Sequence record: NC_041936.1
DNA: 64,000 nt
Direction: 5' to 3' (one strand)
From: Escherichia phage ECD7
Shown here: in pieces, positions 2,840 through 50,095 of the stretch
Layout of the letters: the number at the start of each line of letters is the position of its first letter
Numbering within the stretch: position 1 is the first letter of the stretch
The notes under the pieces: model-generated
The model's database searches: none
What the model was told of the DNA's origin: nothing
Seen by the model: the letters and a program-made list of their open reading frames with translations, nothing else
Made by a program: the position numbers and the translations under genes

Positions 2840-3139
2840 TTAATCTTTTTTCAGTGCATCCATTACTCGCTCTGCGATCAGTTCTCGTAAGCACTGATAG
2901 CCATGATATTTGATGGCAATGTCACGCAGATCATTAACCAGTTCCCGTACTTCATGGTCTTTCAAATCGTCTCTGTATTTCGACTTAACCGTGTCTTTAG
3001 GTGGATTGCGAATAACCTGAAAACCTTGTTCTGCAATCACTGCGGCTTCTCGCTGGCGTTCATGCTGTACTGTATTTTTGATCAGGTCTACTTCCATGAA
3101 CTTTGTCATACTCATCATCATGTTATTCTTTTTGCTCAT
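2840..3139 (-). CDS. hypothetical protein
   Basis: Likely start ATG at 3137-3139 (MSKKNN...) downstream of promoter at 3170-3203; track ORF extends to 3220. Confidence 0.45.
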   Translation of the reverse strand: MSKKNNMMMSMTKFMEVDLIKNTVQHERQREAAVIAEQGFQVIRNPPKDTVKSKYRDDLKDHEVRELVNDLRDIAIKYHGYQCLRELIAERVMDALKKD

Positions 3140-3169
3140 TATTAAATCCTCATAAAAGAAAAGGGAGAC

Positions 3170-3203
3170 TCCCATTATAGAGAATCTCCCTTGTATGTCA
3201 AGT
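3170..3203 (-). promoter_or_regulatory. sigma70-type early promoter
   Basis: Minus strand TTGACA-16nt-TATAAT just after the gene 39 stop. Confidence 0.5.
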
Positions 3204-3204
3204 G

Positions 3205-5028
3205 TTATGATTGCATCCAAATTTTTCGGCGGTCTGAATCTTCGCTATAGAGCAAATCGAATAGCTCTTTATAGTTTTCCGGTAACGTGATGATTTCCAT
3301 TACAGGATCGTTGATCACGCGATGATAATCTGATTCTGTAAGAGATGCTAACCCTTTGATATATCGAATGCTATAACCTTTGATATTATCTCGGTCGTTC
3401 TCGAAATCTTCTAGGTCATAATACCATCGAACATCATCACCTTTCTTTGGTTCCGCAATGATAATAGGTGTTTTGATAAACCGGATTCGTCCATCTTCGA
3501 ACAATTCAGGCCAACGTGCAAAGAAAGAGATCAGACTAGGTTTAATAGACCCGATCCCGTCAGTATCAGCGTCGGTCATAATCGCAATATTTTTGTATTG
3601 CATAACTTCCAATGCATCAACACCAAATTGCAAGCCAGTGATCGCCATGATGTTAAAAATTTCGGCGTTCTTAACGATCTTTGCCTCCGGTTGTTCCCAC
3701 GTTGTAAGAGTTTTGCCTCGCAACGGGAAACCTCCATGTAAATCTGGATCACGTACAGAGACCAGATAGTTGATCGCGGAATCACCTTCCGTCAAAAACA
3801 GGGTAGTTTCTGCGTCAGTTCCAATAAGGTTAGCTTTAACGTGTTTTGCTACCTTAGCCCGTTTCGCTGCTTTTGCTGCCTTAGTCGCTGCCGCTTTATC
3901 TGCTGCCTCTTTGCGTGCCAGGACTACAGCAATAATAGGCATGATAATGTTTTCTTTCTTCGCAATGACTTTAGCCAGCTTTTTAAAATCAAGATCAATA
4001 TGACGCTTGATATCACCAGTTGGATTAGTCAATCGTTCTTTTGTCTGTGAATCAAAACGGAGGTTTGGCAATTCACGAACAATAAGAATACAGGTCAATC
4101 CAGACTTAACCGCCGCTTTAGTAACATCAACCTTATGTTCTTTCTTGATTCGTTTTACAATCTCTTCACAAAGATCATCTATCACGTAGTCTACGTGTGT
4201 TCCCCCGTTTTTGGTAAACAGACCATTAGCAAAGGATACTGATTTAAAACCTTCTCCCTCGACCGCAGGAACTAGGGCAAGTGAAAAGTTTTTATCTTCA
4301 ATGACAAACGGATCATCATTGTATAGTTTAGCATAATCCTTGAACTTACTAACAATACGTTTACCATTAAACTTAAACGTGATCTTAGGAAAGATTACGC
4401 TCAATGATTGCAGACGGTCATGAACAATATCTAAAACAGAGTTGTCCATCATATAACCTTCGAAGTGGTCAAAGTCTGGACAAAATGTAACCTTCGTTCC
4501 CTTCAATTTTGATGGTTTTGATGACCATGTGATATTTTCAGCACCATTTGTGCATTGAACGGTCATTTCTGTTTCACCGTCACAAGTTACACCAGTAAAC
4601 CAATCGCTAAAGAAATTTGACAACGACGACCCCACACCGTTCATCCCTTGCGTTAATCGATTTGTATCATCAAAGTTAGATCCGGCCTTTGTTCGTGTCC
4701 ATGCGGCTACAGGTTGCGGAATCTGCGTACCCTCTGGAGTAGTAACCATATGTTGAGGAATACCGCGACCATTGTCTGTTACCGTAACAATATTGTTTTG
4801 GATATCTACGCTAATCACATTGGCAAATTCAAAATTAGTGCGGATCGCCTCGTCTACAGAGTTGTCGATGATCTCATCAATGATTTTAACCAGCCCAGGA
4901 ACATATGAAATTTTTGTCCATTTACCGAACAGGAAACGTTGATGTTCTTCGTAAGTTGTTGATCCTATATACATTCCTGCACGCTTAAGGACATGTTCAC
5001 GATCAGATAAAATGCGAAACTCACTCAT
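3205..5028 (-). CDS. 39: DNA topoisomerase II large subunit, fused gp39/gp60 form (GyrB-like ATPase)
   Basis: 607 aa; strong resemblance to T4 gp39 N-terminus (ILSDxEH, GMYIGS, VPGLVK, DNGRGIP) continuing through the region that is gp60 in T4. Confidence 0.93.
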   Translation of the reverse strand: MSEFRILSDREHVLKRAGMYIGSTTYEEHQRFLFGKWTKISYVPGLVKIIDEIIDNSVDEAIRTNFEFANVISVDIQNNIVTVTDNGRGIPQHMVTTPEGTQIPQPVAAWTRTKAGSNFDDTNRLTQGMNGVGSSLSNFFSDWFTGVTCDGETEMTVQCTNGAENITWSSKPSKLKGTKVTFCPDFDHFEGYMMDNSVLDIVHDRLQSLSVIFPKITFKFNGKRIVSKFKDYAKLYNDDPFVIEDKNFSLALVPAVEGEGFKSVSFANGLFTKNGGTHVDYVIDDLCEEIVKRIKKEHKVDVTKAAVKSGLTCILIVRELPNLRFDSQTKERLTNPTGDIKRHIDLDFKKLAKVIAKKENIIMPIIAVVLARKEAADKAAATKAAKAAKRAKVAKHVKANLIGTDAETTLFLTEGDSAINYLVSVRDPDLHGGFPLRGKTLTTWEQPEAKIVKNAEIFNIMAITGLQFGVDALEVMQYKNIAIMTDADTDGIGSIKPSLISFFARWPELFEDGRIRFIKTPIIIAEPKKGDDVRWYYDLEDFENDRDNIKGYSIRYIKGLASLTESDYHRVINDPVMEIITLPENYKELFDLLYSEDSDRRKIWMQS

Positions 5029-5127
5029 TATTAAACCTCTTCATAACATAACCATAACTTACTGCAACCGCCACAAAGACGGCTGCAACAATCATATTAA
5101 AAATTGAGTGATTGTCAAGTATATGAC

Positions 5128-5301
5128 TCATGACACGCGCACATTTTTATCGTAATACCCGCCATTAATCCCGCGCGGGGCAGTTAATCCCTGTTTGCAT
5201 TCTTTACCACATTCAGGGCATTCTGCCTTTTCACGCTCGGAAATTTTGCGGATTTTCTGAAATTGACCGTGTTCTTCACAAGAATAATCATATAATGGCA
5301 T
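5128..5301 (-). CDS. FmdB-like zinc-ribbon protein
   Basis: Internal start MPLYDYSCEEHG...; CxxC...CPECG pattern; track ORF 5128..5382 overlaps dexA. Confidence 0.5.
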   Translation of the reverse strand: MPLYDYSCEEHGQFQKIRKISEREKAECPECGKECKQGLTAPRGINGGYYDKNVRVS

Positions 5302-26649: not shown

Positions 26650-26917
26650 ATTGTTTCAGGTCTTCTAAAAGTTCATCCACTGCTTGTTTCAGTACATGAC
26701 GCAGCGTAAAGTAATAGCTTTCATCAAATTCTATTTCCGCGCGAGGAATAGAGCGAATCTTACACTTAACAGTAGTATCGGTGAGTCGCTTTTCGACCAT
26801 CATCCGAACTTCTTCATGCTCTTTGGAATACCATACATCAACGGAGATCCCCTTACGTCGAGCAAACATAGGCAATGCTGCATTAAATTCCATTACTTTT
26901 TGTGCAAGTGTTTTCAT
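26600..26917 (-). CDS. hypothetical protein
   Basis: 105-aa ORF. Confidence 0.4.
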   Translation of the reverse strand: MKTLAQKVMEFNAALPMFARRKGISVDVWYSKEHEEVRMMVEKRLTDTTVKCKIRSIPRAEIEFDESYYFTLRHVLKQAVDELLEDLKQYEIERGTYYEYDYGRG

Positions 26918-27165
26918 CGTACAGACTCCATAGATCCACGCGCAATAACATTCTGGGTAATATCAGCAACCTTACGGGATACGATGTTTGTTAGCCCCTC
27001 TTTGGTGATATTTTCACGATCAAATGGGATTTCGTCATGAGTCCACAAACCATAGTTAGACCGAAATGATAGCATATACTGACCATCTCGCACAACCTCA
27101 AATACATGGATCTTAGTGAATTTCGATAAACCTTCGTTGATTTCTTTCAGTGCATTAGTAATCAT
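26914..27165 (-). CDS. hypothetical protein
   Basis: ATG at 27163-27165 with GGAGG SD (track start is TTG at 27177). Confidence 0.4.
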   Translation of the reverse strand: MITNALKEINEGLSKFTKIHVFEVVRDGQYMLSFRSNYGLWTHDEIPFDRENITKEGLTNIVSRKVADITQNVIARGSMESVR

Positions 27166-45210: not shown

Positions 45211-45454
45211 TTACATTATCTCCATAGATCTTTCCAGCAATATCAATTTCACCAGCGCGAACATCTAGGATAAGATGCGGTAGGTGTATGCAGTTTTCCC
45301 ACCCTACGCGCTTCATTTCTTCTACGGTAACGTAAGCCCATCCGTTCGCTGTAATAAAGTCTACTTCAACCTTGAGAGGAAAGAAAGACTTTTCTATGTC
45401 TTCGAATCCGACAATATGTTTTGTTGTTGAATATGGAATATATCCGGTGATCAT
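45200..45454 (-). CDS. hypothetical protein
   Basis: 84-aa ORF. Confidence 0.4.
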   Translation of the reverse strand: MITGYIPYSTTKHIVGFEDIEKSFFPLKVEVDFITANGWAYVTVEEMKRVGWENCIHLPHLILDVRAGEIDIAGKIYGDNVNEN

Positions 45455-45885
45455 TTTGTGATCTCCTTATACTCAACACACCATAAGCGGGTAGCCCATG
45501 ATAAACGCTCATAACGCTGGCAGAAATCGGACCATAGATATTGTGCACCGTTCGGCATAGTTGAAATATGCGTTTTCTCTCCAACTTTCACGAAAGAAGT
45601 ATTCGATTTTGTGATCTCGACCGGAGTATACCCGAAAGCGGGTTCCAAGCCAACATCTGAACTAAATGCCAATTTAACAGAATTTGTTTTTCTGACCGCT
45701 GTCCGGTTTCCTTCTGGGTATAGCACAGCAGGTTTAGCGCCTAAGCGGATAAACTCAGTGTTTTTAATAAACAGAATATCATGATAACCGTCATATTCTG
45801 ACACTTCCATAGTAACAGGAAAATCGACATGTGCTAAACCCGGTAGATCTCGCATATCATGAAAGGTCGCCATCAACTTTTTCAT
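45451..45885 (-). CDS. hypothetical protein (shares ~55-aa domain with 45896..46141)
   Basis: VEITKSNTSFVKVGEKTHISTM...LSWATRLW vs IVITKSNMSFVEVGEHTHITTM...LSWAIDVW. Confidence 0.45.
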   Translation of the reverse strand: MKKLMATFHDMRDLPGLAHVDFPVTMEVSEYDGYHDILFIKNTEFIRLGAKPAVLYPEGNRTAVRKTNSVKLAFSSDVGLEPAFGYTPVEITKSNTSFVKVGEKTHISTMPNGAQYLWSDFCQRYERLSWATRLWCVEYKEITK

Positions 45886-45895
45886 TCTATATTCC

Positions 45896-46141
45896 TCACT
45901 CTTCTGTAATTACTTCATATTCAATTTTCCATACATCAATCGCCCAGCTTAAAAGCTCGTACGATTTACAGAAAGATGACCAAATATACTGTTTTCCGTA
46001 CATCGTTGTTATGTGTGTATGCTCGCCAACTTCAACGAAAGACATATTTGACTTTGTGATAACTATAGGAATGCAACCGAAAGGAGGCGGTATTACTGAT
46101 TCGTTGGTCTTCATTCTATATTCCTCACTCTTCGGTTTCAT
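45896..46141 (-). CDS. hypothetical protein (paralog of C-terminal domain of 45451..45885)
   Basis: See adjacent gene. Confidence 0.45.
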   Translation of the reverse strand: MKPKSEEYRMKTNESVIPPPFGCIPIVITKSNMSFVEVGEHTHITTMYGKQYIWSSFCKSYELLSWAIDVWKIEYEVITEE

Positions 46142-46361
46142 TTCTTTTATATGGTACTATAACCGGATTAATACAGCAAGCACCAATTACGTTATGAGCA
46201 CCACAATTTAAGCATTTATAATCATGGAACTTATTAAGGAATCGCCCGAACTCATAACCTACTAGCGCCGCGTGTACTTGAGTCTCGATCTCATCCATAT
46301 CAGCCAATGTTTTAACCTTCATAATATAATCCTCAAATACTGGTTTTGCGAAGATGGTCAT
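46125..46361 (-). CDS. hypothetical protein
   Basis: 78-aa ORF with Cys pairs. Confidence 0.4.
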   Translation of the reverse strand: MTIFAKPVFEDYIMKVKTLADMDEIETQVHAALVGYEFGRFLNKFHDYKCLNCGAHNVIGACCINPVIVPYKRNETEE

Positions 46362-46623
46362 TACATGCTTTTAATGCATCAGTTGCTGTGTCATAACGAG
46401 TATTATCATAGCACCAATAACCATCTGTCAACTGATAAATTAATCCATCCTTTTTAGCTTCGATGAAAGATAACTCTTTGAAAGTTTCTACTTTCTTTGC
46501 TGATACTCCACGGTCACGGCGCTTATAGAGTTTAGCTAAAATGCGTTCAGCTTGTTCCTCTTTATCACCAGACAGATCCCAAATAATGTTGCGGATATGT
46601 TTGATTAATTGTTCAGTGGTCAT
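46333..46623 (-). CDS. hypothetical protein
   Basis: 96-aa ORF. Confidence 0.4.
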   Translation of the reverse strand: MTTEQLIKHIRNIIWDLSGDKEEQAERILAKLYKRRDRGVSAKKVETFKELSFIEAKKDGLIYQLTDGYWCYDNTRYDTATDALKACNDHLRKTSI

Positions 46624-46649
46624 CTTTGATTCTCCTTAGTTGGTATGTG

Positions 46650-46681
46650 TGCATTATAGCATTGTGATTATCTTTGTCAAC
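46650..46681 (-). promoter_or_regulatory. sigma70-type early promoter (PeSL-like)
   Basis: Minus: TTGACA-17nt-TATAAT then conserved UTR and AAGGAG. Confidence 0.55.
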
Positions 46682-46684
46682 ACC

Positions 46685-46717
46685 CAAAAACAAAAAAGGC
46701 TATCCCGAAGGATAGCC
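46685..46717 (-). terminator. intrinsic terminator after the glycine-rich gene
   Basis: Minus: GGCUAUCC-uucg-GGAUAGCC then UUUUUUGUUUUU. Confidence 0.65.
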
Positions 46718-46724
46718 CATAAAA

Positions 46725-47501
46725 TTACACGCGAGCGCCGTAGATCGTGCCTACTTTATCCCAGCGAGGGGCATTACCAGTAACAGCCTTACCAGCAGCA
46801 CCACCGTTATATTCTGTACCGTTACCTTGAGTATTACATCTTCCTCCAGCAGCACCGACGTCACCACCAGCACCACCTGTATATGCACTAAGAGACCCCT
46901 CACCAACAGATCCTTTACCCGGAGCGGAAATAGTGCCGGCGGTTGCACCAGCACTCATATTAGAGGAAGACCCACCAGCACCAAATGGACGACCGCCGCC
47001 ACCGCCAAAGGATAGTTTACCCCTGTTACCACCGCCACCGCCACCGCCGCCACCAGCGATTGCACCGTTATTCGTAATTCGTAGACGTGTACCGATAGCG
47101 TTATTGATTGCGTTTCCACCAGCAGCGCCAGCAGCGTTACTACCACCATTACCCCCACGTCCGTAGACAGTCACACCGGCGTTAATGATCAATGTTACAT
47201 ATTCGTTTGTTAACGAGCTAGGGAAGTCAAGACAAGGAACGCCAGTAGATTGGGAAACAATATTACCAGTGATAGTAATTACTACAGGAGTAGATCCTTG
47301 TGCTTTCATCCAGTTAATAAGAGTGTCTTTATTGTAAGAGTTACTAGCACCAATGCTATAATGAATCTCTTTAGAGCGTCCGACCATTGCCGACATATAC
47401 GCCGGACGACCTAAGCGTACAGCTTGCATTGCGGCGCTCATCCACCGTTGACCAGTCTCGGACACCGCAGATGATCCTACCCATCCAGAAGATATTGCCA
47501 T
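46725..47501 (-). CDS. glycine-rich protein of unknown function
   Basis: 258 aa; structured N-terminus then GGNGG/GGGGGGGGG runs; unusually GC-rich for this genome. Confidence 0.55.
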   Translation of the reverse strand: MAISSGWVGSSAVSETGQRWMSAAMQAVRLGRPAYMSAMVGRSKEIHYSIGASNSYNKDTLINWMKAQGSTPVVITITGNIVSQSTGVPCLDFPSSLTNEYVTLIINAGVTVYGRGGNGGSNAAGAAGGNAINNAIGTRLRITNNGAIAGGGGGGGGGNRGKLSFGGGGGRPFGAGGSSSNMSAGATAGTISAPGKGSVGEGSLSAYTGGAGGDVGAAGGRCNTQGNGTEYNGGAAGKAVTGNAPRWDKVGTIYGARV

Positions 47502-47515
47502 AAAATTTCCTCACA

Positions 47516-47537
47516 AGAAAAGCCCCAATTAAGGGGC
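47516..47537 (-). terminator. terminator-like hairpin upstream of the glycine-rich gene
   Basis: Minus: GCCCC-uuaauu-GGGGC then UUUUC. Confidence 0.35.
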
Positions 47538-47555
47538 ATTGATTGATAATATTAC

Positions 47556-47777
47556 TTAGATGACCTCTGCTTCACCATCCAGGAAGAAAGACCATGTTTT
47601 GTTAGGATAGCGAAGCGCCCATGATTCAGCAGTTTTAACACCAGATTCGAACAATTGACGACTGGTTACTTTAGCCATACCATCTTCGATGGCAACGTTT
47701 TCAATAATCATCGGGTAATTAGCGCCACGCATGAAACCGAAACCAGCGGAAGATTTGATAATTTTAACAGTTGCCAT
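47556..47777 (-). CDS. hypothetical protein
   Basis: 73-aa ORF. Confidence 0.4.
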   Translation of the reverse strand: MATVKIIKSSAGFGFMRGANYPMIIENVAIEDGMAKVTSRQLFESGVKTAESWALRYPNKTWSFFLDGEAEVI

Positions 47778-47817
47778 TTTTTGATTCTCCTAGAAAGTGT
47801 ATCTCGTTTCGATGTGT

Positions 47818-47849
47818 GCATTATGCAATAACACCGGATCGCTGTCAAC
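47818..47849 (-). promoter_or_regulatory. sigma70-type early promoter (PeSL-like)
   Basis: Minus: TTGACA-17nt-CATAAT. Confidence 0.55.
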
Positions 47850-47866
47850 ACTTTCTAAGAAAAATT

Positions 47867-48151
47867 TTAAATTAATCGAATATAGCCCAGAATTTCAGCA
47901 CTTTTAGCCAGGTCTAAAACTTCCCATTCAAGGTCGCCGTAGTCATAATTTGCAACCATCAACTGACCATTTTTCATGCAGCAATCATGAGAGAAAATTT
48001 GCCCCGCATAAACTACGATAGTGATAAACTTTCCTGATTCTGGCGGTGTGGAAGACAAAGCGACCATATGACCATTCAGCTTAGTCACCAGTGATGGAAC
48101 AATAAAATTCGGGCTTACCTTAATACCGTTAAATTCGTTTGTGTCTTTCAT
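47867..48151 (-). CDS. hypothetical protein
   Basis: 94-aa ORF. Confidence 0.4.
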   Translation of the reverse strand: MKDTNEFNGIKVSPNFIVPSLVTKLNGHMVALSSTPPESGKFITIVVYAGQIFSHDCCMKNGQLMVANYDYGDLEWEVLDLAKSAEILGYIRLI

Positions 48152-48498
48152 GCCAGACCTCGCAAAACACTAATAGCATAATCATGCTGGTTATTCATAA
48201 TATCAATTGCATTGTGATAACGAGCTAAACCATCAAGGATAAATTCTTGTTTATCCTGTTTCAGTTTGGTATCACGCGCAGCCATAAGAGCATCGAGAAC
48301 AGGTCCAAAGTGATTATCTAATTCATCTTCGGTTGCAATGTTTCCTATTGCCTCGTCGATCCGTGATTCTAATGCTTGCTTTTCGTTGATCACTTGCTGG
48401 GTATATTCCAACACATCAAGAATATCGCGGGTAACGTCGCCATGATAAGGTATTCCCGCATGAAGGTGATCAATTAGTCGTTGAATGTCAATGTTCAT
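48148..48498 (-). CDS. hypothetical protein
   Basis: 116-aa ORF. Confidence 0.4.
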   Translation of the reverse strand: MNIDIQRLIDHLHAGIPYHGDVTRDILDVLEYTQQVINEKQALESRIDEAIGNIATEDELDNHFGPVLDALMAARDTKLKQDKQEFILDGLARYHNAIDIMNNQHDYAISVLRGLA

Positions 48499-48833
48499 TT
48501 GTAACCCTCCTCTGAAAGCACATCCCAGATCGTTGCGTCAAGATGCATTAAATTCCACATAATAGAATCATAACTACCGAAGCCAGAAGTAAAAATTACA
48601 TCACACTGGCGATAAGTCTTATGAAAATCGGTAGCGGTCTCTGCATCAATAGGCATATCGTCACCGGAAAGCACCAGACATTTAAGAATCATAACTCTGT
48701 TAGCCGTTGGCGCTTGCTTAGTCTTTTCAGCATATTTTTCGATGATCCGTTTTGCCTTTTCTTCTTTGATACGTCCAGACCAAATCCGGTTTCGGTATTG
48801 ATTCATAATAATTTCAATCACATCATTTTGCAT
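48495..48833 (-). CDS. hypothetical protein
   Basis: 112-aa ORF. Confidence 0.4.
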   Translation of the reverse strand: MQNDVIEIIMNQYRNRIWSGRIKEEKAKRIIEKYAEKTKQAPTANRVMILKCLVLSGDDMPIDAETATDFHKTYRQCDVIFTSGFGSYDSIMWNLMHLDATIWDVLSEEGYK

Positions 48834-49032
48834 TCTTCACGGTCTCCATAATTGTTTTGTAAGCCAGTTTAAGATGATCACCGAAAAACTTTGCGGTGTT
48901 ACCCTTCGGATCGCGGAGCATGGTTTCTACGATCTCATCGTCAGTAACAATTTCTCCCTTCTTTGCTGCATGTTCTACCATATACTTCAAAGTTTCTTCG
49001 GAGGCAAGTGCTGCGGCTACTGGATTAATCAT
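48823..49032 (-). CDS. hypothetical protein
   Basis: 69-aa ORF after AAGGAG. Confidence 0.4.
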   Translation of the reverse strand: MINPVAAALASEETLKYMVEHAAKKGEIVTDDEIVETMLRDPKGNTAKFFGDHLKLAYKTIMETVKNAK

Positions 49033-49059
49033 TTTGGTTCTCCTTTGTTGTCGATGTGT

Positions 49060-49091
49060 GCATTATGCTATACCCTATTCCGGTTGTCAAC
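49060..49091 (-). promoter_or_regulatory. sigma70-type early promoter (PeSL-like)
   Basis: Minus: TTGACA-17nt-CATAAT. Confidence 0.55.
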
Positions 49092-49099
49092 ACCTAAAA

Positions 49100-49125
49100 A
49101 CGAAAAAGCCACCCTTTCGGATGGC
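49100..49125 (-). terminator. intrinsic terminator
   Basis: Minus: GCCAUCC-gaaag-GGUGGC then UUUUUCGUUUUU. Confidence 0.65.
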
Positions 49126-49359
49126 TTTTGATTATATTTTATTCACGTCCATTTGTATAGTAGTGTTTGAATCGACCTTTGCTAAACTCGTTAAACATAG
49201 TAACCAATTTACCATCCCTTTCCAATGATAACCCTTCCTCGTCTTAGATGGGTCTTCCGATTCGGCAGTAATTGAACACGCGAAAGTATGAGGAAGCCAA
49301 ATGGTTGTGTTAATGCTAGTATTCTTTTACTTCTGGTATGTATCCCAATGTGACTAACA

Positions 49360-49758
49360 TTAAGCCAATCGAGTGAGTTTATAAATTGTTTTAAAGCATA
49401 GAGCTTTGATATCGTCTAAAACGCTCTGTAACGAGCTATCAACATCATTATAAATCTCACTAGCCATTTGCGTTAACTCTTGCAAATAGGCAATTTCGCT
49501 CATCTCCTTGCGGACGACCAACGTTGGCTGATAACGACCAGTGATCCCAATATTGGTTTCAGTGAAATCATCAACCAATTCTTGCATTTCAAGATAGAAC
49601 TCTTCTAGAGCCTTATGTTTTGCATAAGATCCAGGACCAGTTACCCCAAAATGCGCAGAATGCATATAAGTAACACTCATCAGACATTCACCGATAAAGC
49701 GGTCAACTTTATTAGCTTTCCCCTCTTCGGACGTCTTTCGAAAATCACTGAATTTCAT
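49360..49758 (-). CDS. hypothetical protein
   Basis: Internal ATG 49756-49758 (MKFSDFRK...) with GGAGAA SD. Confidence 0.45.
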   Translation of the reverse strand: MKFSDFRKTSEEGKANKVDRFIGECLMSVTYMHSAHFGVTGPGSYAKHKALEEFYLEMQELVDDFTETNIGITGRYQPTLVVRKEMSEIAYLQELTQMASEIYNDVDSSLQSVLDDIKALCFKTIYKLTRLA

Positions 49759-50047
49759 GTTCTCGATTCTCCATATTATGCAACATAACAAACTGTTGTG
49801 CGGCATATTCCCCCATAATAAAACACTGCTTAGAATCCATACATTTACTACGAGCATACATCTTCATAATATGGGCATGAAATTTCTGGCTGGTTTCAAT
49901 GGAAGGAGATATTTTGTTTACATATACTATCATTGCACCGTCGAAATAATCAGTAAAGTCACCAGTTGGATCATATTGATCAGCACTGACACTTCCGACC
50001 GCAGTCAAGCATATTGCCGCTGTTAGAGTTTTACGAATAAATGACAT
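49745..50047 (-). CDS. secreted protein with N-terminal signal peptide
   Basis: MSFIRKTLTAAICLTAVGSVSA signal-like N-terminus; late promoter and SD-sequestering hairpin upstream. Confidence 0.5.
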   Translation of the reverse strand: MSFIRKTLTAAICLTAVGSVSADQYDPTGDFTDYFDGAMIVYVNKISPSIETSQKFHAHIMKMYARSKCMDSKQCFIMGEYAAQQFVMLHNMENREHEIQ

Positions 50048-50051
50048 AAGT

Positions 50052-50095
50052 CATTCCCCCAGATTAAAAATATTCAGTTATATTTATAATCTGGG
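50052..50095 (-). promoter_or_regulatory. late promoter TATAAATA within a 10-bp stem hairpin that pairs with the SD
   Basis: Minus: CCCCAGATTATAAATA...TAATCTGGGGG then ATG; arrangement resembles the T4 soc/e regulatory logic. Confidence 0.55.

Follow-up and report, generated by a model that had tools for sequence, protein, structure and literature searches.

A displaced gene 38 in the early region of an RB49-like phage genome encodes a long-tail-fiber tip adhesin

Introduction

In most T-even-like phages, host range is determined chiefly by the protein gp38, which is also targeted in the engineering of therapeutic phages; its correct annotation therefore matters. Several close relatives of the phage considered here still carry the label 'hypothetical protein' or 'assembly catalyst' for this protein. 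GRM-mediated swapping of modules in gp38 was reportedly described by Tetart in 1998. Such swapping of gp38 modules has also been treated more recently (Trojet et al., 2011; PMC3157838). In Salmonella phage S16, a gp38 monomer caps the gp37 trimer (PMC6851490; PMC12032242). The N-terminus of S16 gp38 is a three-helix bundle that docks through three conserved apex tryptophans held in gp37 pockets (PMC6851490). It is followed by a short linker and a five-ring beta-helix, two turns of which extend as a three-layer sandwich of ten polyglycine-II (PGII) helices built from Gly-rich motifs, and the hypervariable segments (HVS) between these motifs are the distal receptor-binding loops (PMC6851490; PMC12032242). 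In RB49, the fibers use certain O-antigens and OmpA, spontaneous host-range mutants carry gp38 E230K or E230K together with Y231S, and specificity can change by a single HVS substitution (PMC9569957). For the Tequatrovirus Bas45, dependence on OmpA was proven by complementation (PMC8594841).

The place of g38 in the genome varies among RB49-like phages. The displacement of g38 in RB49 has been published, with a PhD thesis as the citation (Trojet et al., 2011; PMC3157838), and a 2025 study found gp38 away from the holin gene in two of five Krischvirus isolates, FL37 and FL38 (PMC12032242). In the literature, ORF251w/dc5 is said to occupy the place of g38 in RB49. The early regions of RB49 and phi1 are the setting of the PeSL (promoter-early stem-loop) recombination model (Arbiol et al., 2010; Comeau et al., 2014; PMC2839356; PMC4122927); g38 is not mentioned by Arbiol et al. 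(2010).

Results

Identity of the ORF as gene 38

The window, by which we mean the whole 64-kb stretch of DNA analyzed, contains an ATG-start ORF of 258 codons on the minus strand (Table 1; coordinates include the stop codon). The encoded protein matches the Pfam family GP38 (PF05268) over the entire profile (1-218/218; E=8.5e-73, 245.2 bits against a cut-off of 25), and its residues 1-40 match the entire Gp38_N profile (PF21721; 1-40/40; E=3.9e-18, 65.6 bits, cut-off 25). It also matches PHROG 2056, 'tail fiber protein; host specificity' (E=5e-99). Residues 1-256 align co-linearly with residues 1-247 of the S16 gp38 chain in the PDB (6F45_D; E=4.6e-52), and a second solved gp38 structure, 9v85, is matched at E=7e-35. 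A tblastn search of annotated phage genomes returned 795 records with a gp38 match, the best of which (RB49, JSE, phi1, ELT3 and KFS-EC) are 96-98% identical over the full 258 residues; within the 64-kb window, tblastn found no second copy. The surrounding 6 kb is 96-97% identical in DNA sequence to the genomes of the same phages; thus, the window belongs to a Krischvirus genome (RB49-like, Straboviridae). The gp38 encoded here is an allelic variant of RB49 gp38 and not a new gene: it shares with the RB49, JSE and phi1 proteins (AAL15128.2 and orthologues) not only its sequence but also the locus between the ORF080c and ORF078c homologues, the two flanking hairpins and the early promoter downstream. 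An earlier reading of the DNA by sequence alone (the sequence-only reading) had noted that Gly-rich modules occur in phage adhesins and had suggested a search for homologues; the search yields a confident match to a known family, an outcome which that reading had named as its own refutation, and the protein is the gp38 long-tail-fiber adhesin.

Table 1. Features at and around g38 (positions are those of the window).
Feature	Position	Strand	Basis or remark
g38, gp38 long-tail-fiber tip adhesin, 258 aa	46725..47501	-	Pfam, PHROG, PDB, RB49/JSE/phi1 identity
Gp38_N gp37-attachment module, codons 1-40	47382..47501	-	PF21721; apex aromatics W7, W20, Y35
Gly-rich motifs and hypervariable segments (predicted PGII-sandwich receptor-binding domain), codons 114-237	46791..47162	-	Gly runs, 6F45_D alignment
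g38 cassette, ~0.9 kb, without counterpart in the KMB43 empty site	46659..47555	-	occupied/empty site alignment
5' hairpin GCCCC-TTAATT-GGGGC + UUUUCUU, weak terminator-like	47522..47537	-	-11.2 kcal/mol, z -2.7
Strong intrinsic terminator GGGCTATCC-TTCG-GGATAGCC + U6GU5 tail	46687..46718 (hairpin 46718-46697)	-	-15.3 kcal/mol, z -5.1
Shine-Dalgarno GAGGAA, 5 nt 5' of ATG	47507..47512	-	sequence
Early sigma-70 promoter TTGACA-N16-TATAAT, 12/12 with TG, drives ORF078c homologue	46653..46680	-	sequence, leader motif ATAATGCACACAT
Early promoter TTGACA-N17-CATAAT, 11/12, drives 73-aa ORF080c homologue	47820..47848	-	annotated in GEC-3S
ORF080c homologue, 73 aa	47556-47777		
Nearest T4-type late promoter core TATAAATA	50081..50088	-	upstream of rI, 2.6 kb upstream of g38

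Base composition of g38

Glycine makes up 22.9% of the protein, rising from 9% over residues 1-110 to 33% over residues 111-258. Ten Gly runs lie between residues 116 and 234, among them GG-N-GG (116-120), G9 (150-158) and G5 (166-170). The glycine-rich protein with poly-Gly runs that the sequence-only reading had described is thus present, and the high local GC content that it had noted is real: the gene has a GC content of 0.505 and its C-terminal half one of 0.55, against 0.404 for the window, and the C-terminal half is the 444-nt stretch of highest GC in all 64 kb (99.98th percentile). The excess is due to Gly and Ala codons only and is not a compositional anomaly. The values at the three codon positions are 0.56/0.62/0.34 (GC3 0.341), compared with means of 0.51/0.34/0.375 for the 74 minus-strand ORFs of the window, and the GC content predicted from the amino acid composition of gp38 and the codon usage of the window is 0.517, compared with 0.506 observed. 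A foreign source of the DNA was considered as an origin of the high GC content and rejected, since GC3 lies below the window mean and amino acid composition explains the GC content. Both GC3 and codon usage are typical for the phage.

Domain layout of gp38

The sequence-only reading had placed a structured N-terminus of about 100 residues before the Gly-rich part. The broad division stands, but the boundary does not: the attachment domain spans about residues 1-40 and is followed by a beta-helix that would carry the Gly-rich sandwich. By analogy with S16, residues ~1-40 would form the helical module that docks on gp37. The remainder is predicted to be a beta-helix with two long protruding loops, in which the Gly-rich motifs would pack into a three-layer PGII sandwich, a fold suggested by 47% domain identity to 6F45_D; the hypervariable loops between the Gly motifs would touch the receptor. 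One gp38 would sit at the end of each long tail fiber, on the gp37 trimer, and set which bacteria the phage can adsorb to.

Several details of the alignment with S16 agree with this layout. The G9 run aligns with PGII helix 3 of S16 (S16 residues 151-158), and the motifs GRPFGAGG, GGAAGKAV and the C-terminal W..VG.IYG are conserved with S16 (GRPxGAGG, GGAAGxAV and WxxVGxIxG, respectively). The three-part layout of S16 gp38 (Dunne et al., 2018), with attachment helices, beta-helix and PGII sandwich, is predicted for the window protein as well, whereas identity is only 38-49% per segment and the hypervariable loops differ. The apex residues W7 and W20 are kept. The third is a tyrosine, Y35, in the window gp38 and in five aligned gp38s of displaced-type Krischvirus phages, compared with a tryptophan in S16 (W36), in Tequatrovirus and in KMB43. 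Since Y35 is still aromatic, docking on gp37 is probably kept, and the tyrosine may mean that it differs in detail from docking in S16.

Mosaic structure and predicted receptor

Compared segment by segment, the two ends of gp38 have different relatives. Residues 1-42 are 100% identical to those of GEC-3S, 011D4 and Makalu_003, 95-98% identical to those of RB49 and JSE, and 61% identical to those of Tequatrovirus. Residues 111-245, by contrast, group by allele and not by genus: the window is 96% identical to the Tequatrovirus PaulHMueller (Bas45), GEC-3S is 95% identical to the Tequatrovirus KFS-EC3, and the window and GEC-3S are only 73% identical to each other. The beta-helix part of the Bas45 protein is likewise 96% identical to the window, unlike the N-terminal 42 residues (61%) and the last 13 residues (77%). 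In DNA, the window and Bas45 are 62% identical over codons 1-42 and about 86% identical over codons 43-258, and identity falls to the random level of 44-51% in both flanks, which are unrelated; the gene order of Bas45 is the canonical g36-g37-g38-t, as opposed to the displaced g38 of the window. Judged by these identities, gp38 is a mosaic of a genus-bound N-terminal module and a receptor domain exchanged with Tequatrovirus. This mosaic is a case of GRM-mediated module swapping, here between genes at different genomic positions.

Nine substitutions separate the window gp38 from that of RB49 (S4K, S5A, A108S, K162R, S164V, S183G, A184S, T190S and D214N), and in residues 111-258, all substitutions relative to RB49 and JSE sit between the Gly runs, that is, in the hypervariable segments. 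The receptor-domain differences from Bas45 are A135G, S164I, N181H, A184S and D214N. Both E230 and Y231, the residues altered in the RB49 host-range mutants, are present in the window gp38. Given the 96% identity between its receptor domain and that of OmpA-dependent Bas45, OmpA is most likely the protein receptor of this allele, an assignment that goes back to one experimentally typed phage. RB49 uses OmpA too, and by analogy with RB49, some O-antigens may possibly serve as additional receptors.

Genomic position of g38

In the window, g38 does not lie directly 3' of gene 37 in the late tail-fiber operon, and no large ORF adjoins it. The early-gene setting ascribed to it by the sequence-only reading is confirmed: the region is hyperplastic, the neighbors are small early-region ORFs with near-consensus sigma-70 promoters, and the same position is on record for RB49. 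The exception bears on where the gene lies and not on the family of its product. In RB49, g38 is found between the rI/tk cluster and dam/nrdC, where small ORFs without known function surround it; on the RB49 record g38 spans ~45.4-46.1 kb, compared with ~151.7-155.6 kb for g37-t; the order of the RB49 tail-fiber operon is g34-g35-g36-g37-ORF251w/dc5-t. The gene occupies this early-region locus in JSE, GEC-3S, 011D4 and Makalu_003 as well.

Krischvirus phages of the canonical type, FL04 and KMB43, have the order g36-g37-g38-ORF251w-t. Their gp38 is T2/T6-like and 56% identical to the window gp38, and their g37-end/g38 module has 89-95% nucleotide identity to many Tequatrovirus phages. For KMB43, the g37 C-terminus and g38 (segment coordinates 2900-4995) are 89-95% identical to, for instance, WilhelmHis/Bas35 and PYps15T, which indicates a fairly recent exchange of the g37 end and g38 between genera. 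ORF251w/dc5 is a small ORF between g37 and the holin gene (segment coordinates 26700-26939 in RB49, 5057-5296 in FL04 and 5055-5294 in KMB43). It was considered as a remnant of g38 and rejected on the grounds that it neither resembles gp38 nor matches any Pfam family, and that it co-exists with g38 in FL04 and KMB43. Since it lies downstream of g38 in these canonical-type phages, ORF251w/dc5 is not a replacement for g38.

Hairpins, promoters and proposed expression

The sequence-only reading was correct in describing g38 as a unit insulated by hairpins, with a terminator-like hairpin upstream and a strong terminator downstream (Table 1). The 5' hairpin, which separates the ORF080c homologue from g38, closes a 6-nt loop with a 5-bp GC stem, and its U tract is interrupted. 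The 3' terminator has a 9-bp stem and a UUCG tetraloop ahead of its U-rich tail. For RB49, TransTerm gave scores of 90 for the 5' hairpin and 100 for the 3' terminator (Nolan et al., 2006), and both hairpins, together with the promoters, are annotated in the GEC-3S record.

The g38 cassette lacks its own promoter. The closest one upstream is the early sigma-70 promoter of the ORF080c homologue, 0.3 kb away. On the g38 strand, neither TATAAATA nor AATAAATA occurs between positions 47502 and 50080; in RB49-type late promoters, A or T is accepted at position -13 (PMC1524935). The late promoter upstream of rI corresponds to RB49 Pl:48756; up to 64.5 kb of its record, RB49 has no other predicted late promoter (Nolan et al., 2006, supplement). 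Between the 5' hairpin and the ATG, the gap is 20 nt and therefore too short to hold a promoter, and RB49 is without MotA or a middle-mode system. From the combination of no late promoter nearby, no room for a promoter, an early sigma-70 promoter as the nearest one and no middle mode, we infer that transcription started at upstream promoters reads through the weak 5' hairpin into g38. The early source would be the sigma-70 promoter of the ORF080c homologue and the late source the rI promoter; a late transcript from rI would have to cross two predicted terminators, including one after rI.-1. Transcription would end at the strong terminator 3' of g38. The g38 Shine-Dalgarno sequence contains no GGAG, and escape from the early-mRNA endonuclease RegB was considered on this account; the absence is uninformative, as 18 of 33 other RB49 early-region genes share it, and the idea was rejected.

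In the window as a whole, TATAAATA occurs 78 times with at most one mismatch, compared with 126 +/- 12 times in shuffled sequences (at least 78 in 100 of 100 shuffles). This scarcity of late-promoter-like octamers may mean that spurious late promoters are selected against in the early region, or it may simply be an oligonucleotide bias.

The g38 cassette and the empty site of KMB43

At the early-region site of KMB43, g38 is missing: after the stop codon of the ORF080c homologue come ttg-TTGACA-N16-TATAAT and the ORF078c homologue. When the occupied and the empty site are aligned, the two are homologous up to and including the stop codon (47558-47556) and again from the -10 box (46658-46653) onward. 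These break points delimit a cassette, ~47555-46659, that consists of 18 nt, the 5' hairpin, the Shine-Dalgarno sequence GAGGAA, g38, and the strong terminator with its U tract; the 5' hairpin is thus absent from the empty site. In the empty-site promoter of KMB43 (segment ~5065-5090, minus strand), the spacer between -35 and -10 is a palindrome, CGGGGA-GAAA-TCCCCG, which forms an embedded stem-loop; the spacer of the occupied-site promoter is unrelated to it.

A break point of the cassette lies inside or beside early promoter hexamers. Such a position is what the PeSL recombination model would predict and is compatible with a rearrangement, in either direction, by recombination between such elements. 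The promoter of the ORF078c homologue and the strong terminator together are a PeSL-type element, and this feature of PeSL cassette edges is found on the 3' side (hairpin 46718-46697 and TTGACA-N16-TATAAT at 46680-46653) of a segment absent in KMB43. As in the PeSL cassettes of RB49 and phi1, a stem-loop and a near-perfect sigma-70 promoter flank a segment that some close relatives have and others lack, and a leader motif, ATAATGCACACAT, is repeated at successive promoters. The g38 cassette differs in two respects: the published passengers are mostly small ORFs of unknown function, whereas the passenger here is a virion gene that is essential, and no promoter is attached to the 5' hairpin of g38. 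A hairpin is also found between g37 and g38 at canonical loci; thus, gene and 5' hairpin may have moved together.

Neighboring sequences

The 13-nt ATAATGCACACAT, which comprises a -10 box and the transcript start, occurs exactly at three successive early promoters, all on the minus strand (46645-46657, 47812-47824 and 49054-49066). With at most two mismatches, it is found 12 times in the window, against 2.96 expected; the motif belongs to the PeSL promoter family of RB49 and phi1. Just downstream of g38, two adjacent ORFs on the minus strand (45451-45885 and 45896-46141; 144 and 81 aa) are paralogous (E=2e-26; 58% identical across 65 aa). The genes present at 45451-46141 vary among RB49, JSE and GEC-3S, so that this stretch is a small hyperplastic patch. 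A Pfam scan of the two small ORFs flanking g38 gave nothing beyond a sub-threshold match of the ORF078c homologue (96 aa, 46333-46623, minus strand) to Csm6_6H, the Csm6 6H domain (E=0.009; 16.5 bits, cut-off 27.6), which is probably noise. Every 1-kb bin of the window has a negative GC skew (-0.06 to -0.24), and the minus strand carries all 14 ORFs of at least 300 aa; both features are expected of the leftward early/middle arm in a T4-type genome.

Discussion

We hold it to be highly probable that the ORF is gene 38, the displaced adhesin of an RB49-like Krischvirus phage of the T4 type, with the layout, receptor and expression route proposed above. No observation speaks against the identification; the receptor and the route and timing of expression are the less certain parts. 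The GenBank product name in RB49 and JSE, 'distal long tail fiber assembly catalyst', would instead make gp38 a tail-fiber assembly chaperone that acts, like the T4 protein of the same number and historical name, at the distal end of gp37 and stays outside the virion. T4 gp38 is such a chaperone and not a virion adhesin, but it is unrelated in sequence to the window gp38 (BLASTP E=7.6), and a remark in the T4 RefSeq record calls the T2-type 'gp38' an unrelated adhesin; since T4 gp38 is unrelated, the label on the RB49 and JSE records is a historical misnomer. With the adhesin family and the S16 adhesin structure matched at full length, and with the RB49 host-range mutations falling in gp38 (PMC9569957), a chaperone can for practical purposes be dismissed. 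As little credence can be given to a Gly-rich secreted toxin or a bacteriocin-like protein, the latter a class mentioned by the sequence-only reading, or to a spurious ORF in a GC-rich repeat. Either could be read from glycine richness alone or from a short ACCGCCGCC-type repeat within the poly-Gly run, recorded in one GenBank entry. The full-length homology to a solved adhesin structure, the strong conservation with substitutions limited to hypervariable segments, and the phage-typical codon use and GC3 speak against both, and the alternative-frame ORFs over g38 on both strands are by-products of its runs of Gly and Pro codons.

Expression leaves more room for a different reading, namely that g38 is an autonomous unit with its own non-canonical promoter, late or other, within the ORF080c homologue or the 55-nt spacer that follows it. 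Hairpins stand on both sides of the unit, late expression is expected of a structural gene, and late promoters of the RB49 type show some degeneracy in their tolerance of A or T at -13 (PMC1524935). On the g38 strand from 47502 to 50080, however, the one-mismatch search finds a lone match, TATGAATA at 48192-48199, which lies within a coding region; the HMM search by Nolan et al. gave no late promoter there in RB49; and the gap between the hairpin and the ATG leaves too little space. A dedicated promoter is thus distinctly improbable, and read-through from the upstream promoters is the preferred route.

Published work already covers the family and fold of gp38, its function in RB49-like phages and the displaced position of its gene, and what is added here is small: the boundaries of the cassette as given by an empty site, its lack of a dedicated promoter, a genus-specific N-terminal module with Trp replaced by Tyr that is combined with cross-genus receptor domains, and OmpA as the likely receptor. 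The interest that remains lies in when, and from which promoter, a virion adhesin encoded in the early region is expressed. One scenario, rather unlikely as a whole and put forward tentatively, is that g38 is a self-contained, promoter-less cassette that either entered a PeSL junction of the early region or is able to drop out of it, that sigma-70 transcription leads to early synthesis of gp38 before that of the fiber shaft, and that FL04 and KMB43 imported a complete T-even g37-end/g38 module and cleanly lost the cassette. If this were true, the expression and exchange of the host-range module would be uncoupled from the late g34-g37 operon.
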